The position numbers and the translations under genes are program-made. Below are positions 3,246-60,884 of a stretch of 64,000 bases of DNA, in pieces (position 1 is the stretch's first letter; each line of letters begins with the position of its first letter). The notes beneath the pieces were generated by a model. It was not told the origin of the DNA. It did no database searches and saw only the letters and a program-made list of their open reading frames with translations. Origin of the DNA: Pirellulales bacterium (GTDB lineage: Bacteria > Planctomycetota > Planctomycetia > Pirellulales > DATAWG01); the NCBI GenBank assembly GCA_036267355.1, contig DATAWG010000076.1:60291-124290 (forward strand), in the 5' to 3' direction.

Positions 3246-5153
3246 GTGCTCAGGCAGTTCGTGAATCATTTCGTCTACTACGATTTGGAAGAAGTGCTGG
3301 CCGACGACGTGCGTCGCGCACGAGCCGTTGTGCCGGGTGCGCGGGAATTCATTGCTCGCGGCACTCCGTGGCCCGAAAAATTGGAAGGACCACCGCCTTC
3401 CGAACTGTGGAACCCCCGTGAGCTCGAATATCAGCGGCGGCTAATGGATTGGATCGATCGTTTGTTCAAGTCTCTGGAGCATGGGCGAATGCAGTCGCTG
3501 CTCGCTTGCAGCGAAGGGTTTTCACAACTGGAGATATTGCGTTATCGGTTTCTTTTCGAGTTCTCGGAGATCGAGCAACGGCTGGCGGTCGCCGGTGAGA
3601 TGTATCGCGAGGGGGCGGAACATATTTCATGGATTGTCCCAGAATCGGCGTGCGCGACCATCCGGCAGCTGATGGGCGGCATCAATTCGCCGCACATCGA
3701 CGTGATCGGCGTCGAGCGGCCCGCCAAGTCGCGAAGCCGGCTTTGGCGACTCTTTCGTTCCTGCGGCCGACGCGTGATCGATGGCTTGATGAACAGCGCG
3801 GATGTGATTGCCCGCGACCCGCGAGACTGGGTAAAGTCGCTTGGTGAGTCGGTGGCAATCGTCGAATATTATCCGAACAGTGCGAAGGCGCTGATTCCCG
3901 TTGCCAAGGCGCTTCGCGAAGAACACGGCGTTGAGACGATTTGGATCGCCGCTCGAAGGCAAGTGAAAGTGGCGCTCGAGCGCCACGGCGTCGCTTCGAC
4001 CTTACTTCGCCGGTTGTCGCCAACAGCGAATCGACGGCCGAAACGTCTTCCCGCCGAGACCGCCGGACGTTTGCGGGAAGCAATCGGTGCTGACGCCGAT
4101 GAGAGTTTGTTCTTCGGAACCGGCTCGCTTTTTGGAAAGTCGTTGCTTGCTCCGGCGATCGTTGAAAAGCTTTCGGGCCTGTTGCAGGAATCGGCATTCT
4201 GGCTCGATTCGCTCACGGAAGCGTTCGCCAGGGTACAACCGCTCTGCGTCGTTTCGACCACATATAGCAGCATGGTCGGCCGCGCTGCCGCCCTAGCCGC
4301 GCGGCGACGGAATATCCCATCGGCGTTCGTGCAGCACGGCATGTTTCCGGACTACGACGTATTCACGCGATTCTGCAACGACGCGATCTTTGTTTGGGGG
4401 CACGCGAATCAGCGAACGATCCACCGCAACGGAATTGCCAATTCCCGGATCCGCGTTGTGGGCCCGGCGATTTACGACGAACTGATTCGGCGCAAGCGGC
4501 TATCGAAACGGCCTGCGACGGTTGGCCAAGGCAATCCACTCGAAATCGCTTACATGGCGTCGCGAACGGGCGGACAGGTCGTAAGCGTTTCGTTGGCCAA
4601 GCTGCACCTGATGGCGATTGTTCGCGCTGCCGCCGTCATTCCGAATAGCCGTCTCACGGTAAAGGTGCATCCGGCCGACTACACGGGGATCATCGATTCG
4701 GTCTTGCGGCAACATCCGCACGTGCGGATCGTTCGCGAAGGCAGCTCGCAAGACGTAACGCTTCAGTCGGATGTTGTGATCGTCGTATCCAGCACGACCG
4801 GCCTTGAGGCCTGCATTGCCGATAAGCCCCTGATCGTTATCGAGACCAAGGGGCTGTCGGAATATGGCCCCTACCGCCAATATGGAGCGGCGATACAGGT
4901 TGCGATCGACCACGTGGACGACTCCGAGCGTTTGGCGATCATCATTCGGCAGCTTTCGACCGATTCCAAAGCGCTTGCCGAGTTGGCCGAAGGGCGCCGG
5001 CGGTTGGTCGATGATCTATTGAACGGCGGCAGGGCGGATGCGACAGAATTGACCGCTCGGGCAATTGTCGAACTTTTTCGTGGCCGCTCCGAATCTAGCG
5101 AGGTGATCGCGGCTGCACGTGCGAAGGACCATGGCAACCGCTCTCTCGACTAA
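3246..5153 (+). CDS. Hypothetical protein with C-terminal GT-B / capsule-synthesis (KpsC/KpsS/TagF-like, HP-motif) region
   Basis: 635-aa ORF with a GTG start. C-terminal signature VKVHPADY...DVVIVVSSTTGLEACIADKPLIVIE. The N-terminal ~350 aa are not recognisable. Confidence 0.5.
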   Translation: MLRQFVNHFVYYDLEEVLADDVRRARAVVPGAREFIARGTPWPEKLEGPPPSELWNPRELEYQRRLMDWIDRLFKSLEHGRMQSLLACSEGFSQLEILRYRFLFEFSEIEQRLAVAGEMYREGAEHISWIVPESACATIRQLMGGINSPHIDVIGVERPAKSRSRLWRLFRSCGRRVIDGLMNSADVIARDPRDWVKSLGESVAIVEYYPNSAKALIPVAKALREEHGVETIWIAARRQVKVALERHGVASTLLRRLSPTANRRPKRLPAETAGRLREAIGADADESLFFGTGSLFGKSLLAPAIVEKLSGLLQESAFWLDSLTEAFARVQPLCVVSTTYSSMVGRAAALAARRRNIPSAFVQHGMFPDYDVFTRFCNDAIFVWGHANQRTIHRNGIANSRIRVVGPAIYDELIRRKRLSKRPATVGQGNPLEIAYMASRTGGQVVSVSLAKLHLMAIVRAAAVIPNSRLTVKVHPADYTGIIDSVLRQHPHVRIVREGSSQDVTLQSDVVIVVSSTTGLEACIADKPLIVIETKGLSEYGPYRQYGAAIQVAIDHVDDSERLAIIIRQLSTDSKALAELAEGRRRLVDDLLNGGRADATELTARAIVELFRGRSESSEVIAAARAKDHGNRSLD

Positions 5154-6045
5154 TTCCATCGGCCCGAGCTTGGCGAAATGCCCGGCTTGCCATGCGCCCT
5201 GGACGACCGCCGGTGCGGTTCGCGTTCCGCTTGGACGAGCGTCTGACGCGATGTTGACCGATATGCTTCGAAAGCAACTCCACGTTCTTGTTTACGAGCG
5301 CTGTTCGTTTTGCAATTCGCTCGTCGCTACCGACGAGCGACGCGATCCGCAGTTCCTGCAATCGATTTACGAGTTGTTGCCGGCATCGTATTGGCACCAT
5401 TTGAATCCTCAGGCTGGCTTGAACATCGCAATCGAAAAACAATTGGGCAAGCGTGGTTTGGTGCGGGGCGACCTTTGGGACGTCGGTTGCGGGAATGGAA
5501 ATCTTCTGAGCACTCTCGGCCGTCAGTGGCGCAAGCGCGGCATCGAGCCGGGCCGCCAGGCAGTGGCGGAGGCGAGGGCCCAAAATTTGGACGTGCTTCT
5601 CGGCACTCCCGCGTCGTTGCAATTGCGCGAGGTGGCGGACGCCGTTTTGCTCGTCGATGTCGTCGAGCATTTGCCGGAACCGGAACTCGAACTGCTTGCG
5701 ATCAAGCAGATGTTGCGACCGGGCGGGGCGCTCGTCGTATTAACCGGGCGCGCGGATGCGCGGACGGCCCGTTTCGCCGGACCGCATTGGTATTACCTGC
5801 ATTGCATCGGCCACGTGACAATTTTCAGTGCGAGCTCATTTCCGTTGCTGCTGCGCAAACTCGGATTCACCGATGTTGCCGTTTTTCGCGTGGAGCACCC
5901 GGGTTCGGTTGGGCTGCGTCGTTGGACGCAGCGAATCGGCGGCAACCTCTTGCGAAGCGCCATCGGAAAGGATCCGGCCGCGATGCACTACTACCGCGAC
6001 CATCAGCTCGTTCTCGCAACGAAGCCGCTTTCCAGCAACCCTTGA
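5131..6045 (+). CDS. Class I SAM-dependent methyltransferase with N-terminal zinc-ribbon
   Basis: Motifs LWDVGCGNGNLL, LLVDVVEHLPEP and MLRPGGALVV, preceded by CPAC...CSFC. ATG 5131 overlaps the upstream gene by 23 nt. Confidence 0.8.
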   Translation: MATALSTNSIGPSLAKCPACHAPWTTAGAVRVPLGRASDAMLTDMLRKQLHVLVYERCSFCNSLVATDERRDPQFLQSIYELLPASYWHHLNPQAGLNIAIEKQLGKRGLVRGDLWDVGCGNGNLLSTLGRQWRKRGIEPGRQAVAEARAQNLDVLLGTPASLQLREVADAVLLVDVVEHLPEPELELLAIKQMLRPGGALVVLTGRADARTARFAGPHWYYLHCIGHVTIFSASSFPLLLRKLGFTDVAVFRVEHPGSVGLRRWTQRIGGNLLRSAIGKDPAAMHYYRDHQLVLATKPLSSNP

Positions 6046-7406
6046 TGCATTCCATCGATTCACGCTTGACGCAGGTCGCTTCCGACAATGGGCCGGAAAT
6101 CGGCGAAGCATCGGCCGAACGCCAGCTTCGTGTGCTCTTCTGTTCTTGGTCGGAATTGGACATCGCCTCCGGGACGCCGGTTATCGTGTGCGATATGCTA
6201 AGGCACTTCTCCGACGGGAACGCCGAAGTTTTCACGGAAGAGAACCTCGACCAAAAGCGCCGCCGCAAGATATCGATTGACCACCCCGTCCGCAAGTTTC
6301 AGTTTCATACCAGGCTGTGGCCCTTTCTCCGCGGGCATCGGATTCGCCGCCGTTTGGCGCGAGCCGGCTTTCCGCTGCTGCTCGGCCAGATGGTCCGGCA
6401 TATCCGCCGATTCCAACCGGATTGCATGGTTGCGATCTACGCCCAACCGCACTGGATTCTTGCCACGTGGATGGCTTCGCGAATCACACGCGTGCCGCTC
6501 GTCTATCATGTTCACGATGCGTTCTTGGAAGCCAATGAGCGGCGAAAGAATTCGAGCTTTGCGAGTTGGCTGGAACGCAAGACGCTCACCTCCACCCGTG
6601 TCTTGGCGCTCGACGACAACATGGCCGACCATTACAAGCGTCGTTACGGCATCCAATGCACGGTTCTTCGCCATATCGTCGAGCATCGTCCGCTACCGGC
6701 CAAGCCCGGACCGCACGCCGGGACAGCCGCCACCGATGCGGCGGCCTTGTCCGCAGGGTCACGCACGCTCACGATCGGATTTGCCGGTGCGATTTATGAG
6801 AGCAACTTGCGCCAATTGACCGAGTTGAGCCAACTTGTCAACCAAGATCCCACGTTCCGTTTGAAGGTGTGGTCGGGCTCGTCTTTCGATACGAGCCGAA
6901 TTTGCGGTCCGAGGGTTGAAGTCGCTTTCGAAGCGAACTACGAGCGATTGCTCGCGAATATCGGCGACTGCGACCTGTTGTATCTTCCCTTGCACTTCAG
7001 CCCCGGGAAGAGCATGGCGGCAAATGCCATGTCGCTTTCGCTGCCCACCAAGAGCTTCGATTATTTACTGTCGGGCGTTCCAATCTTGGTCCACTGCCCG
7101 GAGGATTTTTCCCTATCGCGGTTCTTTGTGAAAAACCGTTGCGGATACGTATTGAACGATCCGCAGATCGAGGCCGTTCGCGAATGGCTCGACGCCTGGC
7201 GATCCGGGCAGCTTCCGCCTCCGGACGAAGAGGCTCGGCTGAAAACTTTGCAAATGCATTCCGCTGCGGAAAACAAGCGAATTCTGTGGCAAGTGCTAAG
7301 CGAAGAAATCGGTCGTAGCGGCACGACAAAGCCGGTGTCGCATCGCGATACCATGGATGAACTTCAACTTCACCGTCCGCCCTCCAAGGATTCCAGCCCC
7401 ACATGA
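6045..7406 (+). CDS. Glycosyltransferase (GT-B-like, family uncertain)
   Basis: ATG 6045 shares its A with the upstream TGA (TGATG). C-terminal segment LYLPLHF...[21 protein letters not shown]. The 698-aa track ORF from 5310 is only an in-frame upstream extension. Confidence 0.6.
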
Positions 7407-8473
7407 GCGTAGCAATCGTCACCGGTTCGGCCGGCTTGATCGGTTCCGAAACTGCAAGGCATTTCGCCGGCATCGGCATGGATATCGTAGGCGTCGATAA
7501 CGATATGCGCCGATATTTTTTCGGCGCTGATGCATCGACAACCTGGCAACGCGAAGCATTGCAACGGAATTTGGATCGACAATATCGGCACGTCGAACTC
7601 GATATCCGCGATCGCGACGGCATCGAACGCCTGATGAGCGAGTATCGATCCGACATTCGCCTCGTCGTTCACACGGCGGCCCAACCCTCGCACGACTGGG
7701 CGGCCAAAGAACCGCTGACGGATTTTTCCGTCAACGCGCTCGGCACGCTCAACATGCTGGAAGCCACGCGCCAATTCGCCCCCGACGCGGTGTTCCTGTT
7801 CACCTCCACGAACAAGGTCTACGGCGATACGCCGAATCGGCTTCCACTCGTGGAATTGGAATCTCGCTGGGAAATCGCCCCGGACCACACCTACGCCGAC
7901 GGCATCCGCGAAGACATGTCGATCGACCAGACATTGCACAGTCTGTTCGGCGCTTCGAAAGTCGCGGCCGACATCCTCGTGCAAGAGTATGGGCGGTATT
8001 TTGGCTTGCGTTCGGCCTGTTTCCGAGGCGGCTGCCTCACCGGTCCCAACCATTCCGGCGCCCAATTGCACGGCTTTCTGGCCTACCTCGTCAAATGTGC
8101 CGCCCGGCGGACGCCCTACACCGTGTTCGGATACGGCGGCAAACAGGTACGCGATAATATCCACTGCGCAGATTTGATCCGGGCCTTCGATCGCTTCTTC
8201 CATGCGCCGCGCTGCGGCGAGGTCTATAACATCGGCGGCAGCCGCTATAGCAATTGCTCCATGCTCGAAGCGATCGACATCTGCACGGAAGTGACCGGCA
8301 ATCATCTGGATTGGAACTATCAAGAACAAAACCGCACGGGCGATCATATCTGGTGGATCAGCAGCGTGGCAAAATTTCAATCGCACTATCCCGACTGGCA
8401 GCTAACCTACGACGTGCGTCGCATCATTCGCGAGATCTATGAGGCGAATCGAGAGCGCTGGGCCGCCGCCTAA
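7403..8473 (+). CDS. NAD-dependent sugar epimerase (extended SDR, CDP-paratose/UDP-sugar epimerase-like)
   Basis: [10 protein letters not shown] Rossmann motif and FGASK (YxxxK position). 356 aa. ATGA overlap with the upstream stop. Confidence 0.85.
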
Positions 8474-8495
8474 TGCAATTTGATAGGTTAAACAC

Positions 8496-8580
8496 GGGCA
8501 TGGGTGCCCTACCCGCGGCTTGCGTGGGCATGTTCCCCGAGCGATCCACTTGCCCGACCAAGGCGGTGGGCACGGCATCC
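8496..8580. repeat. REP-like palindromic element cluster (GGGCATGGGTGCCC / GCGTGGGCATG / GGTGGGCACGGCA)
   Basis: Intergenic. Contains GGGCAtgggTGCCC hairpin and GTGGGCA motifs, related to the element at 53367-53451. Confidence 0.4.
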
Positions 8581-8649
8581 GCTGATCTCCCATCGATCTC
8601 GCGGCGAATGAATGACTGACCGAATTACTCGCATGGAAATCCTGACCGC

Positions 8650-10605
8650 ATGTGCGGAATAGCCGGCATCTGGAACTGCCGCCCCGGCTTCGATGCCGAA
8701 CCGGCCGTGGGCGCGATGCTCGATGCGATGCAATATCGCGGCCCCGACGGCCGAGGCACGCTTGCGTTCGAAGGGGGGGCCGCGGGAATGGTGCGCCTTG
8801 CCCTGGTCGATCTCTCTCCACGCGGCATGCAGCCGATTTGGTCGGCCAACCGCCGCGTTGCGGTGCTGTTCAATGGCGAGATTTACAACTTCCGCTCCGA
8901 ACGCGATCGTCTTCTCCGCTCCGGAGTCGAGTTCCACACCGGAACCGACACGGAAGTGATCCTTCAACTCTACCTGGAGGACAACGACAACTTCGTCGAG
9001 CGCTTGCGCGGTATGTTCGCGATTGCGGTGTTCGATTGGCGCTCCTCGTCGGCCGGCGCGTTGCCGATGCTCACGCTAGTGCGAGGTCCCTTGGGGATCA
9101 AGCCGCTCTATATCGCCGCGATGAGCGATGATCCGCATGCCATCGCGTTCGCGTCCGAGGTGCGCGGCTTGTTGGCCGGAGGCATTGTACCGCGGCGTGT
9201 TGACCCGGACGGGCTGAGCGATTTTCTCGCCTGCGGATTCGTCGCACAGCCGCGGACGATTATCTCCGGCGTGCGAATGCTGGAAGCCGGCTGGTTGGAA
9301 CGGTATTCGCCTGGAGAGGAGGTCCGTCGGCGGCGATTCTGGCATCCACCGCCTTACCGTCCCCGCGCGGAAACGCTCGACGAGGCGGCTAGCCGCCTGC
9401 GCGGCATTTTGGAAGAGAGCATCGCGTTGCACGCCTTTGCCGACGCGCCGGTCGGCGCCTTCCTGAGCGGCGGCGTCGATTCCACGGGAATCGTCGGCCT
9501 GATGCGCAAGCATGTTTCCGAGTTGCGGACCTACACGCTTGCCTATCCCGACGCTCCACAGCGCGACGAATCGGAGTACGCAATCGAAACGGCCGCCCGC
9601 TTCGATTGCCGCAACACGGTGGTCGAAGTGCGCGGCAGCGAAATGCCCGACGTTTTGCCGGCGTTCGCCAGCGCGATGGACCAGCCGAGCTCCGACGGTT
9701 TGAACACGTGGCTGATCTCGCGGGCAGCAGCCGGCGATGTGAAGGCCGTGCTTTCGGGCATCGGCGGCGACGAATGGTTTTCCGGCTATCCTGTCACACG
9801 TCGCATGGCCTACTACGCCGTGCACCCGTTCGGCCGCGCCAAAGCCTTCGCCGGCACGGTGGCGGCAATGCTCACCGATTTGCTTCCCGAAGGAAAGATT
9901 CGCCAGCGGGCGTACAACCTCGCCATGCGTCGGTCGTCGCTATCGACTTGGCTGCATGCCCATTCGGTGTTTCGCTACGATCAAGCACGCCGCATGATCG
10001 GCCAGCCGGAAGACAATTCCGAACAAGTTCACGAGTTCGTTGACGCATTGACCGAGTTGCGCTCCGATTACGGCCGGGAGGGGCCTATCGGCCTGGCCTG
10101 TTTGTTGGATTTCCATTTCTATATGGGAAGCCAGTTGCTCCGCGACGCCGACGCCATGAGCATGTCGCATTCGCTCGAGTTGCGGACGCCGTACGTTGAC
10201 GTCGAGGTGGTCGATTTCGCCCGAAGTTGCCAAAACGACTACAAGCTCCGCTACGATGGCGGCTTGGACGGCCATTATTCGCATAGCGGAGCGAAGCGGG
10301 TGTTGATCCACGCGTTGCGCGATGTCTTGCCGCTGGATATAGCGCAGCGTCCGAAGCGAGGCTTTGCATTGCCGATGGTCCATTGGATGCGCAACGACCT
10401 TCGTCCGCTACTGATGGACACTTGCAGTCACGCCGCCATCGCTCGCCGTGGATTGGTGGATCCGGCAGCGGTCGCCCCGATGATGCACGGGGCCGAGGCG
10501 ATCTCAGCCAACCTCTATCCTCGTTTGTGGACGCTGATGCTGCTCGAATTGTGGTGCCGGGCGACGCTCGATGTTCCGGTGCGGGCGCCGGTGGCAAGCC
10601 GATGA
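8650..10605 (+). CDS. Asparagine synthase (glutamine-hydrolysing) family amidotransferase
   Basis: N-terminal MCGIAG (Cys2 Ntn nucleophile) and PP-loop SGGVDS. 651 aa. Confidence 0.9.
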   Translation: MCGIAGIWNCRPGFDAEPAVGAMLDAMQYRGPDGRGTLAFEGGAAGMVRLALVDLSPRGMQPIWSANRRVAVLFNGEIYNFRSERDRLLRSGVEFHTGTDTEVILQLYLEDNDNFVERLRGMFAIAVFDWRSSSAGALPMLTLVRGPLGIKPLYIAAMSDDPHAIAFASEVRGLLAGGIVPRRVDPDGLSDFLACGFVAQPRTIISGVRMLEAGWLERYSPGEEVRRRRFWHPPPYRPRAETLDEAASRLRGILEESIALHAFADAPVGAFLSGGVDSTGIVGLMRKHVSELRTYTLAYPDAPQRDESEYAIETAARFDCRNTVVEVRGSEMPDVLPAFASAMDQPSSDGLNTWLISRAAAGDVKAVLSGIGGDEWFSGYPVTRRMAYYAVHPFGRAKAFAGTVAAMLTDLLPEGKIRQRAYNLAMRRSSLSTWLHAHSVFRYDQARRMIGQPEDNSEQVHEFVDALTELRSDYGREGPIGLACLLDFHFYMGSQLLRDADAMSMSHSLELRTPYVDVEVVDFARSCQNDYKLRYDGGLDGHYSHSGAKRVLIHALRDVLPLDIAQRPKRGFALPMVHWMRNDLRPLLMDTCSHAAIARRGLVDPAAVAPMMHGAEAISANLYPRLWTLMLLELWCRATLDVPVRAPVASR

Positions 10606-43408: not shown

Positions 43409-43609
43409 GTGACCGTGATCGTGAATGGCCAGCCTCGGCAAGTGGCAGAGGGCATGTCGGTGGCCGGGCTGCTGGCCGATTTGGGGCTTGTCTCCGGGCC
43501 GGTGGCGGTGGAAGTGAATCTGGAGTTGGTGCCGCGAGCCCAGCATGCCCGGCAGCCGTTGGCCGAGGGAGATCGCGTCGAAATCGTCACGCTCGTCGGC
43601 GGAGGTTAA
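43409..43609 (+). CDS. thiS: Sulfur-carrier protein ThiS
   Basis: Ends in ...VTLVGGG, a C-terminal GG directly upstream of thiG. GTG 43409 gives the canonical 66 aa; ATG 43349 is an alternative start. Confidence 0.8.
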
Positions 43610-43613
43610 TCGC

Positions 43614-44486
43614 ATGCTCGAACCAAGCGCAGTGGAAACAAACGCCGCGGCCCCGGCAAGCGGTCCGCTCGATTCGCCGCTGCGGATCGGCAGCCACACG
43701 CTCAGCAGCCGGCTAATCGTCGGCACCGGCAAATACGCGACGCACGAACTGATGGCCCAAGCGCTGGCCCTCTCGGGAACCGACTGCATCACCGTGGCCG
43801 TCCGGCGCGAGCGGCTCTTCGACAGTCAAGGGCGAAATCTGCTCGATGCGATCGACCGCAATCGCTACACACTGTTGCCGAACACGGCCGGCTGCTTCAC
43901 GGCCGACGATGCGGTGCGCGTCGCCCGATTGGGCCGCGAACTTTTGCTGGGCTTGGAAAACCCCGGCGCCGATTGGGTGAAGCTGGAGGTGCTGGCCGAC
44001 AAAAAGACGCTGCTGCCCGATCCGGTCGCGACGGTCGAGGCCACCGAGCGGCTCGTGGCCGAGGGGTTTGTCGTGCTGTGCTACACGAGCGACGATCCGA
44101 TCATCGCCCGGCGATTGAAAAATGCCGGCGCGGCGAGCGTCATGCCGGCCGGCAGCCCGATCGGCTCAGGGCAAGGGATTCTGAACCCGAACAACATCCG
44201 CATCTGTCTGGAATACCTCAAGCAAGACGATCCGGATTATCCGGTGATCGTCGATGCGGGAGTGGGCACGGCCAGCGATGTGACGATCGCGATGGAATTG
44301 GGCGTCGACGGCGTGCTCTTGAACACCGGCATCGCCGGCGCGGCCGATCCGCTGGGGATGGCCCAAGCGATGCGTGCCGCGATCGTCGCCGGCCGATTGG
44401 CGTGGCTCTCGGGCCGCATCCCAAAGCGCCTATACGCGACCGCCAGCAGCCCCGACGCCGGTCTCATCAGCCCGAAGCCGCGGTGA
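43614..44486 (+). CDS. thiG: Thiazole synthase ThiG
   Basis: [19 protein letters not shown] and [10 protein letters not shown]...LLPD. 290 aa. Starts 5 nt after the thiS stop. Confidence 0.9.
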
Positions 44487-45223
44487 CGCGAAGGCGTCTG
44501 CCAGGCTTCGGAGCTTCGCAAGACGACGGGCCGTGGGGCATTTCATGCTTTGGACCGCCTTGCCGCTTACCATGGTCGTCCGCGTGCGAGCGGCAAGCCG
44601 CTAGCCCACCGGTATTCTTCCGGGGTAAACGCAGCCGCGTGCTTGTGCGTGCCCCTTCTCCCCGCTTGCAGCGACGCTTGACGCAGTGCCAGCGGCGCAT
44701 CCGGAGCGTGTGCTAGGTCCGTTCCCAGCGAATGGACCTGGCAGCCCTGCCAGCCGTTTTGTGCTTCCCCAGGCGAGTGAAACTTCACCTTTTCCGTGAA
44801 TTGACGCTAACCGCATTGTGCGGAAAAGAGATCGGGCCCCGCTGCTGCGAAACGTGTTTCAAAGCGGTGAAATCCGCCGAAATCGCCATTCGAGTTCTCG
44901 AAAGTGTTTTGAATGCGCAAGTTGTTTTGGAATTGCCACTTGTGATCCGACGCGAAATTTTCCGAGTCCGCGGCGCGGTCGTTGCTTTACAGGGTTGCAT
45001 CAACCAAGTGGCCGACGAGTTTTAGGAGAGCCGTCAGCTTCGCGTCTGAACACTTGTGTGAATCGATGTGTAAGCAAGTGTGTGGCCGAAGCCGCAGCGA
45101 GGCCAGCGAGGTTGGCAAGTAGTGCGGCGTGTGGTGTCCGGGAGTTTGCGGCGTGGCTGCCGATCCCGGGAGTGAGGTGGGCGGTGGCGGAAACGCGTAC
45201 CGCATTACGGCATTAACCCTTCG

Positions 45224-45739
45224 TTGTCTTACCCATCGAGTACCCCAGTCATGAGCACCGTCGTTTCTTCCATTCGCGACCCGATCCCACGTGAGCAGCC
45301 TCGTCTGGAGCGAGCGGTGAAGACCGTTGCCACGCGCGGCTTGCTGGAATGCCTGATCGTTTCGCCGCGGGCGAAGCAACGCGAAGCGCTTTCGCGTGCC
45401 GCCACCGCCGGCGGTTGGGCGAGCGTCGTCTGCAGTGATGCCGCGACGGGCCGTCATCTCGCGCAGCGGATCGTCGTCAAGCTGGCGTTCATCGATTTGG
45501 AAGAGGGTTCGCTCGACGCGCTCGTGAGCCTACAAGAACTCGCCGCGGATTTGGCCCGCATGGGCTGCCCGTTGTTGGTTGTCTGCGGGGCCGATGGCGA
45601 TCGCCAGCAAGAAATTTGGGCGCGGCAACTCGGCGCCTGGCTTTACTTGCCCGGAATGGCGGGCGTTGAAGAAATGACCCAACTGTGTGAAGAAGCCCGC
45701 AATGTCGTGGAGCGCAAGAGCCCCAGCGGCATCCGCTAG
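45224..45739 (+). CDS. Hypothetical protein, possibly receiver-like (pseudo-receiver) fold
   Basis: Alternating beta/alpha-like pattern (CLIVSP..., LAFIDL, PLLVVCG). No clear phospho-acceptor motifs. Start uncertain (45224 or 45251). Confidence 0.4.
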   Translation: MSYPSSTPVMSTVVSSIRDPIPREQPRLERAVKTVATRGLLECLIVSPRAKQREALSRAATAGGWASVVCSDAATGRHLAQRIVVKLAFIDLEEGSLDALVSLQELAADLARMGCPLLVVCGADGDRQQEIWARQLGAWLYLPGMAGVEEMTQLCEEARNVVERKSPSGIR

Positions 45740-45816: not shown

Positions 45817-45996
45817 ATGCAATCGCCGAGCTACGCGTATCAGCAGGATCATGAGATGGACTACAGCGTCGAATTTGGCCGGCGAGAGACGGAGCGTTCG
45901 CGTCGTCCGCGTCGCCCGAGTTATTCGCGCGGCGGCAACCGGCCGGTCGTCGTCAACGGCATTCATCGTCGCCGCCACAAGCGTTGCACGTGGTGA
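45817..45996 (+). CDS. Small arginine-rich protein, NGIHRRRHKR C-terminal motif family (59 aa)
   Basis: AAGGAG 6 nt upstream of the ATG. Too short for the ORF track. Translation: MQSPSYAYQQDHEMDYSVEFGRRETERSRRPRRPSYSRGGNRPVVVNGIHRRRHKRCTW. Paralogous to 58070-58240 and 58915-59091. Confidence 0.6.
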   Translation: MQSPSYAYQQDHEMDYSVEFGRRETERSRRPRRPSYSRGGNRPVVVNGIHRRRHKRCTW

Positions 45997-46199: not shown

Positions 46200-47078
46200 A
46201 TGCTATCCACCAACCGACACGTTCTGGCCGGCAGTTTCCGTTGGCCGCTCGTTTGCTGCACTGTTGCCGTTGCATTGATCGCGTGGACAAGCGCCGACAG
46301 GGCCGTCGCGCAGTCCTTTTCGCTGTATGACCCGAACATTTCGTCGACCGTGCAAACCGTCACCAGCGCGCCGGTCTCCGATCTGCTGGTGCCCGGGAGC
46401 TACGCCGAGGCTGATGGTGTGGAGTTCAGCAATTTTTCGATGACCACCGCGGCATTCGGCGCGGGAGTGGTCTTGCCAACTGCCGCAGACATGGTCATCT
46501 CGGCGCCCAACAGCGCGACGCCCGAACTGAAATTCCAAGGCGGACCGTTTCTTGCCCTCAACAACCAATTCGTCGACGTAAGCCTGCAGTTCGACGTGAC
46601 CGCCCTCGATTCCAATCAGAAGCTGACCACCGCCGAACTCCGCTATACGGGCGGCACCTCCGGCACCGGCAGCGTCGTGTTCAGCGAAGATGTCGACGAT
46701 ATGAGCAACAATCTGCTCGGCGACGGATCCTTTGTGCTGCAGCAAGGATTTTCCGGGTCGTCGAACGCCGGCACGATCGCTTTCGCCGGCCAGCAAGAAA
46801 TTCAGGTCAGCAAGGATATCGAGCTATTCGGTCAGGCGACCGGCGATTCGGCGACGCTCAGCGATTTCACGCAGACATTCAATGTCACCCCGGCGGCGGT
46901 GCCCGAGCCGAGCAGTATCGCCATGGCAATCTTCGGAAGCGCCGGCCTTGGCTGGTTCGGCTGGCGTCGGAAGGGGAAGCGGCGAAACGCGGAGCTTGCA
47001 TGTATGGCGACGCGATCTTTGCTCGATGTGAGCAGTCCTCGGTTTGCCCGAGTGAACCTGATTCCCGCCTCGGCCTGA
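46200..47078 (+). CDS. PEP-CTERM sorting-domain protein
   Basis: N-terminal signal peptide. VPEPSSIAMAIFGSAGLGWFGWRRKGKRR (PEP, hydrophobic helix, basic cluster) is followed by 30 further residues. Confidence 0.75.
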   Translation: MLSTNRHVLAGSFRWPLVCCTVAVALIAWTSADRAVAQSFSLYDPNISSTVQTVTSAPVSDLLVPGSYAEADGVEFSNFSMTTAAFGAGVVLPTAADMVISAPNSATPELKFQGGPFLALNNQFVDVSLQFDVTALDSNQKLTTAELRYTGGTSGTGSVVFSEDVDDMSNNLLGDGSFVLQQGFSGSSNAGTIAFAGQQEIQVSKDIELFGQATGDSATLSDFTQTFNVTPAAVPEPSSIAMAIFGSAGLGWFGWRRKGKRRNAELACMATRSLLDVSSPRFARVNLIPASA

Positions 47079-47524: not shown

Positions 47525-48421
47525 TCAAGCCGCCTCTGTCGCCAGTTGGCCGTCGGCATTCAGGGCGACGATGATGATCCCATGTCGCTCGGCCAGGGCG
47601 ATGCATCGCGGCTCGTCGATAAGGATGGTTCGCCCAGCTTCGACGGCCAGCAGTTTCGCTCCCGCGGCGGCCATGGTCTCGAGGGTGTCGGGCCCGATCG
47701 TGGGAACATCGAACCGCATGTCTTGTTGCGGTTTGGCGACCTTTACGACGGTGAATCCGCCCGTCGGACAAAGCGATCCGGCGCGGCGGATGCATTCGTC
47801 GGTCCCCTCGATCGCTTCGAGCGCCAGGGGCGACCGGTTCTTGACGGCGACGCTCTGACCAATGTCGAGCCGACCGAGTTCTTTCGCCAATCGCCAACCG
47901 AATTCAATGTCTTGCCGCTGGGCCGCCGAGGGTCCGCGGCGAGTCAATTGTCCGTATTTCACGAGGAGCTCCGGTGCATAGTCGGTGGCCGGCGCCAAAC
48001 GGATTCCCGCGCGCGCCAAGCCGTCGGCGATTGCGCGCAACAGGGTGTCGTCGCGGCGATCCTTGTGGCGTGCGATGAAAATAGGCCAAAGCATGCGAAC
48101 CGTTTGCCAGTCGGGCCAATATTTCCGCCATGCCCCTTTTTGGAACAGCCGGACCTTATGGACTTTGCCGACGAAGGTCGCCTCGCGCACGCCCGTTCGC
48201 TGCATGAAGCGGATCGCTTTGCCCATCCGCGCCAAGCCGACCCAGGTGAATTCGTCGCACAGATCCGCCAGCGATGGATCGGCATGCTCGGTGATTCCCA
48301 ATCCGACAACCGTAAATCCTTCGCGACGAAGCGCCGTGGCCACGACGGCCGGATAGTCTCCCCACCCGGCCACCAGCCCGATCTTCACGCGATTCGTCAT
48401 GGACATGGCAGCGATTTTCAT
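47525..48421 (-). CDS. lpxI: UDP-2,3-diacylglucosamine pyrophosphatase LpxI (DUF1009)
   Basis: IGLVAGWGDYP N-terminus, GQSVAVKNRSPLALEAIEGTDECIRRAG, FDVPTIGPDTLE. Adjacent to lpxD. Start could be an internal ATG a few codons downstream. Confidence 0.8.
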   Translation of the reverse strand: MKIAAMSMTNRVKIGLVAGWGDYPAVVATALRREGFTVVGLGITEHADPSLADLCDEFTWVGLARMGKAIRFMQRTGVREATFVGKVHKVRLFQKGAWRKYWPDWQTVRMLWPIFIARHKDRRDDTLLRAIADGLARAGIRLAPATDYAPELLVKYGQLTRRGPSAAQRQDIEFGWRLAKELGRLDIGQSVAVKNRSPLALEAIEGTDECIRRAGSLCPTGGFTVVKVAKPQQDMRFDVPTIGPDTLETMAAAGAKLLAVEAGRTILIDEPRCIALAERHGIIIVALNADGQLATEAA

Positions 48422-56760: not shown

Positions 56761-57786
56761 TCAAGCCCGGAGCTGATCGCGCGCCAAAGATTCGTCGTCC
56801 GGCAGATCACGCTGGGCGATGAGGCGGGTGAGCGTATTGGGATGGATGCCCAGAAGCTTGGCGGCGCGGCCCTTGTGCCCACGCGTCGCGCCGAGAGCCT
56901 GGCGGACGGCTTCGTCGCGCAGCCGTGTCAAATTGAAAAATGGCAGCGATCCCGAGGCATGCGCGGCCGGACCGGAATTCGGCAGGCAGGGATTCGATTC
57001 CAGCACATACGACTGCTCGATCACGTGCGACAACTGCCGGATATTGCCCGGCCAATCGTATTCACAAAATTGGCGAAGCGTTTCCGGATCGGGGCGCCAC
57101 ACCGATCGATGGTATTTCGCCGCGTTTCGGGCCGAGAAGAACGCGATCAGTTCCGGAATGTCGTCCAAGCGTTGCCGTAGCGGCGGGACACGCAGTTCCA
57201 CCATGTTGAGCCGATAAAACAGATCCTCGCGAAAACGGCCGGCGAGCACTTCGGCCTCGAGGTCGCGATTCGTGGCGGCGATCACCTGCACGCTAATCGG
57301 CTCCGGATGTGCGGCGCCGACGGGGGTGACCTCGCGTTCTTGCAAGACACGGAGCAATTTCGGCTGCAGTTCGAGCGGCATTTCGCCGATCTCGTCGAGA
57401 AATGCAATTCCTCCCTCGGCAGCTCGAAACACGCCAAGCGAACTGCCCAAGGCGCCCGTGAACGCTCCGCGCTCGTGGCCGAACAGTTGGCTTTCGGCGA
57501 GCGAAGTCGTCAGGGCGGCACAATTGACAGGCACGAATGGCTTGTTCGCCCGTGGGCCGCCGCTATGGACGACGCGGGCCCAGATCTCTTTTCCGGTGCC
57601 CGTCTCGCCGGAGATCAGCACCGTGCACTCGACTTCGGCAGCCCGGCTGGCGTGCTGCGCTACCCGGCGGATCCCAGCATTACAACCGAGCACCCATTCG
57701 AGTTCGGGCTGACGACGCGTAGCCGGCGGTGCGGACTCGGCCCGCGCGCCCACCCCGTTCACCGATTCACCGAATAAATTCTTCAC
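56761..57786 (-). CDS. Sigma-54-dependent transcriptional activator lacking a sensory N-terminal domain (PspF/HrpS-like architecture)
   Basis: GETGTGKE Walker A, ERGAFTGA (GAFTGA loop), GGIAFLDEIGEM Walker B, C-terminal HTH (AAKLLGIHPNTLTRLI). Only about 30 aa precede the AAA+ core. GTG start. Confidence 0.9.
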   Translation of the reverse strand: MKNLFGESVNGVGARAESAPPATRRQPELEWVLGCNAGIRRVAQHASRAAEVECTVLISGETGTGKEIWARVVHSGGPRANKPFVPVNCAALTTSLAESQLFGHERGAFTGALGSSLGVFRAAEGGIAFLDEIGEMPLELQPKLLRVLQEREVTPVGAAHPEPISVQVIAATNRDLEAEVLAGRFREDLFYRLNMVELRVPPLRQRLDDIPELIAFFSARNAAKYHRSVWRPDPETLRQFCEYDWPGNIRQLSHVIEQSYVLESNPCLPNSGPAAHASGSLPFFNLTRLRDEAVRQALGATRGHKGRAAKLLGIHPNTLTRLIAQRDLPDDESLARDQLRA

Positions 57787-58069: not shown

Positions 58070-58240
58070 TCAACTGTAGCGCTTGTTGCGCCGGCGATGG
58101 ATGCCGTTGAAGCCCGCAGGACGTGATGTCCGGGCATGCTCCGGCCGCCGCGATCGCGGCCGCTCAACCGACTCCGGCTTGCGAACCTTAACTTGGTAGT
58201 CCAACTCTTGCTCGTTGTAATAATCATTTGCCGCGTTCAC
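58070..58240 (-). CDS. Small arginine-rich protein, NGIHRRRNKR C-terminal motif family (56 aa)
   Basis: GTG start preceded by AAGGGA. Translation: MNAANDYYNEQELDYQVKVRKPESVERPRSRRPEHARTSRPAGFNGIHRRRNKRYS. Confidence 0.6.
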   Translation of the reverse strand: MNAANDYYNEQELDYQVKVRKPESVERPRSRRPEHARTSRPAGFNGIHRRRNKRYS

Positions 58241-58377: not shown

Positions 58378-58393
58378 TGCAAGCACCGTTCCA
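58378..58393 (-). promoter_or_regulatory. Candidate sigma-54 (-24/-12) promoter
   Basis: The minus strand reads TGGAACGGTGCTTGCA, against the consensus TGGCACG-N4-TTGCW. GG and GC fall at exactly the canonical spacing. About 138 nt upstream of the GTG at 58240. Confidence 0.5.
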
Positions 58394-58914
58394 AAACCCG
58401 GCTGAATAGCGAGAGAAGTCGCAGACCATTCGCTCATATAGAGTTGCGGCTAGAAGCCGGCATTTTCAAACAATCCAAAGAACCGTGCCGTCTTCACCAT
58501 TTTGAGTGATATCGAGGTCGCAAAATCAACGCATCGCTAGCCGAGCAAACGGTTTATGAAGCAAACACTGAACTAGTGCGATATCACTGAATCGGTGAGA
58601 GGGGGGTAATGGTCAGCGAGAAGCGTCCCAGTCCGCGGACGAGGGCTCGAGCGCGTCCGGAAATTCACGGCCTGGAATATGGGCTTATGGGCTGTCGAAA
58701 CAGCGCCGTGCGCTGGGTAGATCTTATGCAAAGGTGCGGCGCCCTTGTCCCGCACGAATGAGCACCGAGATAGGCACACGACGCAAAACGCGCGATCGTG
58801 CCCAGTCGCCCCTGCATCCAGTCGCATGAAATCAAACGCAGCGCCCTTGTGGCAGAGGACGGGGCGGGGGTCGGCAAGAAGTTATTTTCGGCCGACCCTT
58901 CTTACGATCGCTCG

Positions 58915-59091
58915 TCAGAAAGAATAGCGCTTGTTTCGACGGCGGTGCTTGCCGTTAAAGCCGGCATTGGTCGACTTTCGAGATCGCTCGGGTCCGCGCC
59001 GGCGACGACTCGAGTTATCGCGCTGACGCTCATTCGCAGAAGGCAACGTCGATTCCGAGTCGTCGAATATGAACGAATTGGCCGAGTTCAC
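58915..59091 (-). CDS. Small arginine-rich protein, NGKHRRRNKR C-terminal motif family (58 aa)
   Basis: GTG start with GGAG upstream. Translation: MNSANSFIFDDSESTLPSANERQRDNSSRRRRGPERSRKSTNAGFNGKHRRRNKRYSF. It shares the MN(A/S)AN start and the C-terminal motif with 58070-58240. Confidence 0.55.
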   Translation of the reverse strand: MNSANSFIFDDSESTLPSANERQRDNSSRRRRGPERSRKSTNAGFNGKHRRRNKRYSF

Positions 59092-59182: not shown

Positions 59183-59198
59183 CGCAAAAGTCATTCCG
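59183..59198 (-). promoter_or_regulatory. Candidate sigma-54 (-24/-12) promoter
   Basis: The minus strand reads CGGAATGACTTTTGCG, with GG and TTGC at canonical spacing. About 92 nt upstream of the GTG at 59091. Confidence 0.45.
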
Positions 59199-59756
59199 CA
59201 ATTGACGCGAATCAGCAGTTGCTTGTAACCAACTGCGGCGATTCGCTTTAGACAAATAAGTCCCAAATGGACGAACCTTCGACCTGCCACACAGATGTGC
59301 TAAATTTCTATGGTCAATGTTGCAACTCGTTGAACATACGGTTCTTGCGGCGATTCCCAAAAACAGTGACATCTCACCAAAATAGTGATTATCGGCTCTT
59401 TCCCCTTCTGCCGAATGTGGCATCGCTTTGCTGCGTTACAGGGCTGCTCCGGACCGGTGCGTGCGGTTTCAAGTGCGCGACGAACAGCCAGTCCGCTCGT
59501 TTGCGGTGGCATGCCCGTTTCCCAAGCAACGAACTGATCTCCGTTCTGCCTCGACCAATGCGCCTGGTCGATCGAAATTTGTCGTTCGATATCTGGCGAT
59601 ACTGTTTCGACTTGCGGAGTTTCGATTATTCGAGCGACAGCGAATCAACAGCGTCCGGTATATCCCTTGCTTGAAAAACCTTGAATCGTGTTGGCCGCTT
59701 CAGAGCGCCATCGTTCAAGACGCGAACAATCTGAGTAGTTGCAAAAGGAGAATTTC

Positions 59757-60884
59757 ATGATCAAGAAATTGGCGAAGTGGGCAGGAGCATTCGCGGCAGC
59801 GGCTGCCGCGGCACTGGTCGGGGGCCACGTGGCCTTCGCAGATCCGCCGGTGCGAGTAGAACCACGGGCTCCCGAAGCCGTGCGTGAAGCGCCCCGTGAA
59901 GCGGTGCGCGACAACCGCGCGGCGGTGCGCGACGCCCGGATCGACCGTCGCGCTCGTCGGGCGCCGGGTGAGCTGGGACTGAGAATTGGGGCCGTGGCCG
60001 ATCGGGGGCTAGCGATCGCGAACCTCGTCACCAACAGCGTGTTCTACGATGCGGGACTACGGCCGAGCGATTACATCGTCTCGGTCGACGGACATCGGAT
60101 CGTCGCCCCGGGCGACTTTGACCGGTATCTCTATGCTGCTGGCCCGGATCAACCGGTGCAGATCGTGGTCTGGCGGAACGGTGCGGACCAAACGCTCACC
60201 ATTCAACCCTCCGTTCTGTATGCGAATGACGCCTACGACAACGATCTGAACAATTTCGGCGTCGAATTCGACCCGCAATACACCAATCAGTTGCTCATTC
60301 GCCGCGTGCTTCCCGGGTCGCGCGCCTATCTGTCCGGCCTTCGGGATGGCGATGTGATCACGGGTTGGAATGGTCAGCGCATTCGCTCGCCGCAAGAATT
60401 CGCGAAAGTGATTCACGACGAAAAGCCGGGGCGCGTTGCGTTCGACTATAACCGCGGCTCGAAGACAATGCAGGGGAATGTTACATTCGATCGTCGCGAC
60501 GAACGCACACCGAACGCCGCCGGGACCCAACCGGCCGACCGGACTGCTCAACGCGATACTCGACCCATAGAGCCGTCGCGGGTAGGCCCAACTCCCCGCG
60601 AACCGACCCCGACGGTCACTCCGCCGGCAAATCCGCGCGAAACCACGCCGACGGTCACCCCGCCGACGAATCCGCGCGAGCCGATCCCGACGGTTACACC
60701 GCCGGCTGGTCGCGAGCCGGGTCAGACCACGCCTCCGGCTGGTCGCGAACCGCCGCGAACCAATCCGCCTGCGGAAGGCCGAGCGCCGTCTGCGGCACCG
60801 CGCGCTGAAGCGCCGCGCCCGGCCGAGGCCCCGCGCCCGGCCGCACCGGCATCTCGCGAAGGAACCGCACCCGGTGCGAAATAA
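59757..60884 (+). CDS. Secreted protein with two PDZ-like domains and a Pro/Thr-rich tandem-repeat tail
   Basis: AAAGGAG Shine-Dalgarno. Signal peptide (KWAGAFAAAAAAALVGG). PDZ-like segments (GLRPSDYIVSVDGHRI; GLRDGDVITGWNGQRI). The tail carries NPRE(T/P)xPTVTPP three times and AGREP twice. Confidence 0.75.
   Translation: MIKKLAKWAGAFAAAAAAALVGGHVAFADPPVRVEPRAPEAVREAPREAVRDNRAAVRDARIDRRARRAPGELGLRIGAVADRGLAIANLVTNSVFYDAGLRPSDYIVSVDGHRIVAPGDFDRYLYAAGPDQPVQIVVWRNGADQTLTIQPSVLYANDAYDNDLNNFGVEFDPQYTNQLLIRRVLPGSRAYLSGLRDGDVITGWNGQRIRSPQEFAKVIHDEKPGRVAFDYNRGSKTMQGNVTFDRRDERTPNAAGTQPADRTAQRDTRPIEPSRVGPTPREPTPTVTPPANPRETTPTVTPPTNPREPIPTVTPPAGREPGQTTPPAGREPPRTNPPAEGRAPSAAPRAEAPRPAEAPRPAAPASREGTAPGAK

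Follow-up and report, generated by a model that had tools for sequence, protein, structure and literature searches.

Some bacterial sigma-54 activators have no regulatory domain of their own and are controlled by small partners acting in trans: PspA controls PspF, and HrpV and HrpG control HrpS. In Proteobacteria, sigma-54 promoters precede genes for PEP-CTERM proteins, along with a target site of the activator PrsR, as described for the PrsK/PrsR/PrsT system (Haft et al. 2006, PMC1569441). Here we analyse a 64,000-nt stretch of DNA from a Pirellulales bacterium of the phylum Planctomycetota (GenBank assembly GCA_036267355.1, contig DATAWG010000076.1, positions 60,291 to 124,290 of the forward strand), hereafter the window. 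It carries three genes, designated c1, c2, and c3, for small arginine-rich proteins with a common C-terminal motif. The family to which they belong is genetically linked to an acidic pseudo-receiver, encoded directly upstream, and to a sigma-54 enhancer-binding protein (EBP) without a regulatory domain. We propose, tentatively and with a probability of roughly 0.4, that the small proteins are trans-acting partners of the pseudo-receiver and the EBP in a sigma-54 circuit. The original prediction, made by a model from the sequence of the window, had recognised a real peptide family but missed this context, that is, the pseudo-receiver, the sigma-54 promoters and enhancer, the EBP, and the PEP-CTERM genes including a fusion to them.

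The locus resembles the PspF/PspA and HrpR/S–HrpV/HrpG systems in two respects. The window EBP consists of AAA+ and helix-turn-helix (HTH) domains only, and its candidate modulators lie beside it under sigma-54 promoters, which gives a feedback layout. The candidates have no similarity in sequence or fold to PspA, HrpV, or HrpG, however; they are a basic peptide of 58 residues, predicted to be disordered, and a pseudo-receiver.

The Prs system shares with the locus the sigma-54 promoters, an upstream activator site, and long upstream non-coding regions at PEP-CTERM-associated genes, and the association of a sigma-54 promoter, an enhancer, and an EBP with PEP-CTERM genes is an already known type of system. 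The differences lie in the proteins. The window EBP scores 252.9 bits against the PrsR family TIGR02915, the cutoff of which is 502.6 bits, and the match covers profile positions 137–443 only, indicating that the EBP has no receiver domain. The receiver-like domain is here a separate, degenerate protein, and no histidine kinase or tetratricopeptide repeat (TPR) partner is seen in the loci. The Prs system, in turn, has no small-protein component, and its cis-element has been described only for Proteobacteria. The small-protein family and its pairing with the pseudo-receiver are new to the databases and literature searched.

Results

A conserved family of small proteins

The original prediction had placed three short open reading frames (ORFs) of 56–59 codons in the window, each with a Shine-Dalgarno sequence and all ending in one motif. 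Translation of the three ORFs reproduces their coordinates, strands, and lengths, and each is preceded by a Shine-Dalgarno sequence (Table 1). The C-termini read NG(I/K)HRRR(N/H)KR followed by two to three further residues, c3 having the variant NGKHRRRNKRY, and the c1 protein reads MQSPSYAYQQDHEMDYSVEF...VVNGIHRRRHKRCTW. A six-frame regular-expression scan finds the full motif at these three places only in the 64 kb. As had also been noted, the three genes are poorly represented in the list of ORFs: c1, with 59 residues, falls below its cutoff, and c2 and c3 are listed only as ORFs of 79 and 90 residues, which begin at start codons further upstream. Annotation systematically misses bacterial small proteins of fewer than 60 residues.

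A profile of the three sequences retrieves homologues with a conserved reading frame. Among 5.8 billion proteins, 127 protein clusters match at E ≤ 0.01, nearly all of 54–66 residues and all labelled 'hypothetical' or without a name. An exhaustive hidden Markov model (HMM) search of 1.84 billion representatives yields 234 at E ≤ 1e-3, nearly all with members of 55–70 residues; these stand for clusters at 50% identity and are a lower bound on the family. A scan of one genome per GTDB species with the search pattern NG[IKM]HRRR[NH]K gives 62 loci, in 61 of which the gene is genuine and in frame. The rejected locus (L062, 6001–6033), in an AT-rich metagenome-assembled genome (MAG) of Clostridia with 41% G+C, contains the exact 11 residues NGIHRRRHKRC, with the rest of the protein absent, and was judged a chance match.

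All genuine loci lie in Planctomycetia/Pirellulales MAGs from soil, groundwater, and lakes, with no cultured isolate among them, and the family has so far been seen only in Pirellulales-type planctomycetes. Five loci with the complete Pirellulales-type operon (L023, L024, L029, L032, and L050) are binned under other names, among them Chitinophagaceae, Candidatus Kuenenia, and Solirubrobacterales, probably through mis-binning or mislabelling of the contigs. The absence of a known family assignment, likewise part of the original prediction, holds throughout: Pfam-A and NCBIfam return zero families at E ≤ 10 for c1, c2, and c3, a 112-sequence profile yields a single chance-level match (E = 0.8) among PDB sequences, and no paper containing the motif was found in the literature searched.

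Selection acts on the peptide

It had been argued, from conservation of the protein C-terminus despite diverged DNA, that selection acts on a peptide rather than on a DNA repeat. The comparison of homologues agrees. Start codons, stop positions, and Shine-Dalgarno sequences are kept in all 61 loci, with AAGGAG, GAGGAA, or AAAGGA found 6–9 nt before the start in every homologue. An alignment of the motif DNA of c1, c2, and c3 shows differences almost only at third codon positions. In a codon alignment of 63 distinct genes, the motif columns have an entropy of 0.34 bits at the first codon position, 0.31 bits at the second, and 1.03 bits at the third, and the same third-position bias is seen in conserved columns that the search pattern does not cover (D, E, D-Y, R, Y, and R).

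Measured against the closest relative, L063, the ratio of nonsynonymous to synonymous substitution (dN/dS) amounts to 0.065 (c1) and 0.072 (c2), and dS exceeds 1; the overall range of the ratio for these two genes is 0.065–0.26. The c1 orthologues are 90–93% identical, and the GTG start and the N-terminus VNAAND of c2 are kept in L063, L054, and L065. Orthologues of c3 occur in the same three loci, where c3 is the fastest-evolving paralogue, with dN of 0.46–0.73 outside the motif. In L063, the c3 orthologue (4205–4378, + strand) is unannotated, and a gene of 66 residues is called over it on the opposite strand (4235–4435), probably a mis-annotation.

These data bear on the possibility that the ORFs are not protein genes at all but a DNA or RNA repeat or the product of chance. 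Spurious ORFs are common in G+C-rich genomes (the G+C content of the window is 61%), and gene callers often miss or mis-start the ORFs in question. However, codon variation in the motif spares positions 1 and 2 and sits on position 3 (1.0–1.6 bits), dS is 1.1–1.7 with dN of 0.07–0.3, the translation signals are kept across the 61 loci, and an Rfam search finds no element in the window. A DNA or RNA element is ruled out by the codon-position entropy, dN/dS, and the empty Rfam search, and the non-protein reading as a whole is effectively refuted. The codon-level record thus shows c1, c2, and c3 to be translated genes of a conserved family of proteins of ~58 residues.

Properties of the small protein

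The small protein has three segments of different character. The N-terminus is acidic and aromatic (MN.AN..YQ.QE.DYQV), with a net charge of about −3 over residues 1–22; the middle is basic (R..RRP.Y.R..RP); and the C-terminus carries NGIHRRRNKR(F/Y/W).(W). Across the family, arginine makes up 19% of the residues, the median net charge is +7, and the isoelectric point (pI) is 11.1. Arginine, lysine, and histidine together account for 27%, close to the value of about 30% given for the window copies.

The disorder suspected from this composition is also predicted by AlphaFold2. With an alignment of 112 sequences, the model has a predicted local distance difference test score (pLDDT) of 63, a predicted template modelling score (pTM) of 0.13, and no secondary structure. 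The small protein is thus predicted to be intrinsically disordered on its own, as expected for a motif that folds upon binding, and its C-terminus looks like a short linear binding motif.

An acidic pseudo-receiver is encoded upstream

ORFs of at least 100 residues were clustered around the 61 genomic loci and two regions of the window. In 58 of the 62 loci, a gene for a protein of ~165 residues lies on the same strand and ends ~78 nt (60–90 nt) before the small gene. In the window, c1 is correspondingly the second gene of the operon, and the product of the first is matched at 100% identity by a protein from a Pirellulales MAG that is annotated as 'hypothetical protein'.

Pfam Response_reg does not match this protein, and the only Pfam match is to a VpsR domain at E = 0.077. 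Its profile, however, matches receiver domains in the PDB. The AlphaFold2 model (pLDDT 84, core above 93; pTM 0.76) has a (beta-alpha)5 fold of five strand-helix units, and the top 50 Foldseek matches to the model are all receiver domains, with TM-scores of up to 0.85. The phosphorylation site is degenerate. The aspartate at the phospho-acceptor position is kept ('VDL'), whereas the acidic pair that binds Mg has become S-x ('CLIVS'), the conserved Thr/Ser is Cys ('VVCG'), and the Lys is Leu ('YLPG'). Because the acidic pair, Thr, and Lys are replaced, we call the protein a pseudo-receiver; it shares the fold and the aspartate with stand-alone CheY-like receivers and differs from them in these replacements and in the lack of a Response_reg match.

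The most conserved stretch of the pseudo-receiver, EE(I/L)WARQLGAWLYLPG, corresponds to helix 4 and strand 5 in the model. The alpha4-beta5 region is the usual interaction face of receiver domains. The two proteins are complementary in charge, with −7 for the pseudo-receiver core (pI 4.65) versus +7 for the small protein. No natural fusion of the two was found among 123 pseudo-receiver homologues, the long ones being merely over-called at the N-terminus.

Sigma-54 promoters and enhancer-like sites

Each of the three window transcription units has a candidate −24/−12 promoter of the sigma-54 type, and all three have the correct GG-N10-GC spacing (Table 1). Shuffled controls are expected to give 0.05 matches as good as the c2 promoter per 61 sequences. 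The c3 promoter is the weakest of the three, and those of its orthologues score 9–10/11. Nearly all loci keep a sigma-54 promoter at the equivalent position upstream of the pseudo-receiver gene, as exemplified by TTTGGCACGGGCAGTGCATTT. The promoter regions yielded no sigma-70-like promoter.

The 64 kb contain exactly three copies of the palindrome TCAC-N7-GTGA, as against 0.6 expected by chance, and each copy stands 186–205 nt before a different one of the three promoters. In other loci, sites of the form TCACC-N5-GGTGA stand at fixed distances of ~117, ~200, and ~219 nt from the promoter, and the distance of the second c2 site, which has an N8 spacer, agrees with the family-wide site at ~117 nt. 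On the basis of these promoters and sites, c1, c2, and c3 belong to one conserved sigma-54 regulon of enhancer, promoter, and EBP, and we infer that the adjacent EBP binds the TCACC-N5-GGTGA sites.

A sigma-54 promoter directly before the c1-type genes was considered and is absent. Because they have no promoter of their own and follow the pseudo-receiver gene by 60–90 nt, the c1-type genes are most likely co-transcribed with it. Predictions of intrinsic terminators after the small genes gave nothing above the shuffled background.

The enhancer-binding protein and gene order in relatives

The recognised domains of the window EBP (Table 1) begin at residue 34, and the protein has no N-terminal sensory or regulatory domain. 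Both c2 and c3 lie upstream of its gene on the same strand, c2 directly so. An orthologous EBP is encoded nearby in 26 loci, and the EBP orthologues elsewhere adjoin the pair of pseudo-receiver and small gene or other small genes.

In L063, the order on a single strand is c3, c2, EBP, pseudo-receiver, c1, and PEP-CTERM. Judged by gene order, the window is a rearranged form of this undivided arrangement. L065 has two EBP genes, with a separate small gene standing before each of them, in the order c3, EBP, c2, EBP, a fourth paralogue (MNRAAAQYDEPLDQ...NGIHRRRNKRWTW), pseudo-receiver, and c1 (5001–10109). The source annotation of L065 called only some of these four small paralogues.

PEP-CTERM genes and fused variants

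A gene for a PEP-CTERM protein follows c1 in the window, and at least 23 loci have such a gene after the small gene. The passenger domains of these proteins belong to at least four unrelated types. Throughout a large soil clade (~20 loci), the small gene is instead followed by a convergent gene for a Peptidase_C25 protein (gingipain family) of ~530 residues. The convergent Peptidase_C25 loci include L003, L006–L012, L019, L033, L039, L040, L044, L053, L055, L057, and L060.

One proposal is that the small protein acts in cis, as a leader or arrest peptide whose C-terminal residues stall the ribosome and thereby control the downstream gene. It would suit the clustering of conserved residues near the C-terminus, the constant distance from them to the stop codon, and the positions of c2 and c1 ahead of the EBP and PEP-CTERM genes, respectively. 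However, in the ~20 loci with the convergent Peptidase_C25 gene there is no downstream gene to control in cis, and what lies downstream varies from clade to clade. Purifying selection extends to the N-terminal and central parts (dN/dS of 0.065–0.07 over the whole gene, with conserved D, E, Y, and R outside the motif), and the module is kept when fused into a long protein. We regard a cis-acting peptide as very improbable, and as a general role it is excluded by the ~20 loci in which the small gene is the last of its operon.

The fused proteins form ~15 representative clusters of 370–425 residues. They consist of the small module (residues 1–60), a conserved GSGRGAR linker, a Sec-type signal peptide, an FGE-sulfatase domain, and a PEP-CTERM anchor. 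Members include P0150, P0160, P0180, P0187, P0203, and P0206, with the motif H[CR]RR[NSQ][KS]RW[TN]W. Among curated protein families, P0150 is matched by FGE-sulfatase and PEP-CTERM only, and its first 60 residues are unmatched. In L015 (2567–3802), the DNA reads ...CGC TGG ACC TGG GGC ACG AGC... without a stop codon. Therefore, the fusion in L015 is genuine. Readthrough or an alternative genetic code as the source of the ~400-residue fusions is ruled out by the same run of codons (TGG GGC ACG). The L015 fusion has retained both the pseudo-receiver gene and the sigma-54 promoter on its upstream side.

In the fused proteins, the module sits ahead of a cleavable signal peptide, on its cytoplasmic side. 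In having a conserved module before an ordinary Sec signal peptide, the fused clade resembles autotransporters with an extended signal peptide region (ESPR). The module differs from the ESPR in that it comprises ~60 residues, is highly charged, and is usually encoded by a separate gene, and there is no match to the ESPR family of Pfam.

In 20 loci of a freshwater clade, a Peptidase_S26 gene (signal peptidase I-like) lies directly upstream of the sigma-54 promoter and the pseudo-receiver operon. The Peptidase_S26 gene is ~0.9 kb upstream of the small gene in L024, L026, L028, L030–L032, L035, L037, L043, L048, L051, L059, and others.

The module could accordingly be an export helper, a detached pro-region that, fused or separate, targets or paces secretion of the PEP-CTERM preprotein at the cytoplasmic face of the membrane. 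The in-frame fusions directly before a Sec-type signal peptide, the downstream PEP-CTERM genes, and the Peptidase_S26 gene of the freshwater clade all speak for such a function. It does not, however, account for the ~20 soil-clade loci, where the small gene is last in its operon and no PEP-CTERM gene is adjacent, nor for c2 and c3, which are paired with EBP genes and not with genes for secreted proteins, and it leaves the linked pseudo-receiver without a role. We consider it unlikely that this is what the family does.

Leader sequences and binding to RNA or ribosomes

The transcripts have long 5' leaders, of 150–340 nt. The leader of the pseudo-receiver operon measures ~265 nt in the window (44987–45250) and 330–400 nt in the soil clade. 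No hidden conserved ORF was found in these long pseudo-receiver-operon leaders. A UG-rich block, TTGTGTGAATCGATGTGTAAGCAAGTGTGTG (~45054–45085), is common to the window and L063. No RNA motif common to the three window leaders was found.

In 19 soil-clade loci (L003, L006, L007, and others), a short G+C-rich hairpin lies ~15–35 nt upstream of the start of the small gene, directly 5' of the conserved Shine-Dalgarno sequence AAGCGAGGAAC. It shows compensatory changes (GGGGC/GCCCC, GGGT/ACCC, GGGA/TCCC, and GGGC/GCCC). RNAalifold gave no consensus structure for the spacer between the pseudo-receiver and small genes owing to indels; the short hairpin is visible by eye.

The original prediction suggested, with composition as its sole basis, that the small proteins associate with nucleic acid or ribosomes; nothing found here speaks specifically in favour of this. 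In its explicit form, the target of the arginine-rich C-terminus would be an RNA hairpin, DNA, or the ribosome, and the sigma-54 circuit would only time production of the protein. The arginine content, pI of 11, net charge of +7, and predicted disorder are compatible with such binding, and so are the long leaders, the covarying hairpin, which is confined to the soil clade, and the conserved Trp or other aromatic residue after the arginine run. The last feature recalls Trp18 of lambda N, which stacks on boxB.

The small proteins share with lambda N, HIV Tat and Rev, RMF, and SRA their short length, arginine richness, predicted disorder, and aromatic residue after a basic run. They differ in lacking homology to these proteins, in that no cognate RNA element was found here, and in a sigma-54 context in place of an antitermination or ribosome locus. 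More broadly, no homology to RMF or to ribosomal or nucleoid families is detected in Pfam, NCBIfam, or PDB sequences. The absence of an Rfam element in the window and of an RNA motif shared by the leaders also counts against a nucleic-acid or ribosome binder. Neither the pairing with an acidic pseudo-receiver nor the fusion before a signal peptide, which tethers the module to the membrane, would be expected of one. The sigma-54 context favours a role in a regulatory circuit over a general one at the ribosome or nucleoid, and we consider binding to nucleic acid or ribosomes somewhat unlikely as the function of the family.

Features of the window and neighbouring genes

Table 1 Features of the small-protein loci in the window.
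Feature	Coordinates	Strand	Description
Enhancer-like palindrome TCACCTTTTCCGTGA	44785-44799		186 nt upstream of the pseudo-receiver operon promoter
Pseudo-receiver/c1 operon promoter CGGCGCGGTCGTTGCT	44971-44986	+	-24/-12 sigma-54 type; 8/11 consensus
Pseudo-receiver gene	45251-45739	+	162 residues, acidic, CheY-like fold; ends 78 nt before c1
c1 small-protein gene	45817-45996	+	59 residues; ATG start; AAGGAG 7 nt 5' of start
PEP-CTERM protein gene	46200-47078	+	PF07589, E = 5e-7; 204 nt downstream of c1
Sigma-54 EBP gene	56761-57786	-	Sigma54_activat + AAA_lid_14 + HTH_8 (Pfam, NCBIfam)
c2 small-protein gene	58070-58240	-	56 residues; GTG start; AAGGGA upstream
c2 promoter TGGAACGGTGCTTGCA	58378-58393	-	Sigma-54 type; 10/11 consensus; 153 nt before GTG
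Second enhancer-like site TCACTCAAAATGGTGA	58494-58509		N8 spacer; 116 nt upstream of the c2 promoter
Enhancer-like palindrome TCACTGAATCGGTGA	58584-58598		205 nt upstream of the c2 promoter
c3 small-protein gene	58915-59091	-	58 residues; GTG start; ACGGAG upstream, weakest Shine-Dalgarno of the three
c3 promoter CGGAATGACTTTTGCG	59183-59198	-	Weaker sigma-54 type; 7/11; GG-N10-GC spacing correct
Enhancer-like palindrome TCACTATTTTGGTGA	59374-59388		190 nt upstream of the c3 promoter

A gene for a PDZ-domain protein (59739–60884, + strand) is divergent from c3. The corresponding side of L063 (1–3566) carries genes for PDZ, Bac_transf (sugar transferase), Flp pilin, and TadE proteins, which suggests a cell-surface neighbourhood. 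On either side of the c1 locus, the products of 43545–44486 (+ strand) and 47525–48421 (− strand) resemble thiazole synthase ThiG and an LpxI/DUF1009-like protein, respectively, by motifs recognised by eye. These two genes appear unconnected with the small proteins.

Discussion

We propose that the small proteins work in trans, by binding to other components of the sigma-54 circuit. The C-terminal NGIHRRRNKR would serve as a docking motif for the acidic alpha4-beta5 face of the pseudo-receiver, for the EBP, or for both; docking on these proteins is suggested by gene linkage, charge complementarity, and conservation. Together, the small protein and the pseudo-receiver would supply the control that is missing from the EBP, through feedback or partner-switching. 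The output of the circuit would include PEP-CTERM surface proteins, and in the fused clade, release of the module may be tied to export of the PEP-CTERM protein.

Several points weigh against this proposal. The proposed binding to the pseudo-receiver or the EBP derives from linkage, complementary charge, and conservation, and RNA, DNA, or ribosomes would be equally possible targets for a disordered peptide rich in arginine. Control by the EBP suits an effector as well as a regulator. The freshwater clade has no EBP gene within 6 kb, and the link to PEP-CTERM genes is not universal, as the soil clade has none adjacent, its operon ending with the small gene. The invariance of the motif is partly inflated, as the genome scan used the motif itself as the search pattern, and the fused members found with the HMM relax it to H[CR]RR[NSQ][KS]R.

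A bolder version adds a step to the proposed partnership in the circuit. The disordered, arginine-rich micro-proteins would be a new class and would combine with the pseudo-receiver into the missing control module of the EBP. Some lineages would make the micro-protein as a cytoplasmic pro-region to a Sec signal peptide, and signal-peptidase processing of the exported PEP-CTERM protein would set it free as a transcriptional regulator. We think this version improbable. If true, a regulator made from a signal-peptide fragment would constitute a direct feedback from secretion to transcription.

To our knowledge, gene regulation in planctomycetes is almost unexplored by experiment. A large family conserved within one order, with a 10-residue motif, a defined regulon, and a linked partner, offers a ready experimental handle, and the natural fusion before a signal peptide makes a link between export and transcription testable. 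If the circuit is as proposed, it would be the first proposed regulatory circuit for PEP-CTERM surface proteins outside the proteobacterial Prs system, and control of the EBP by the small proteins and the pseudo-receiver would represent a new solution for regulating activators without a sensory domain.

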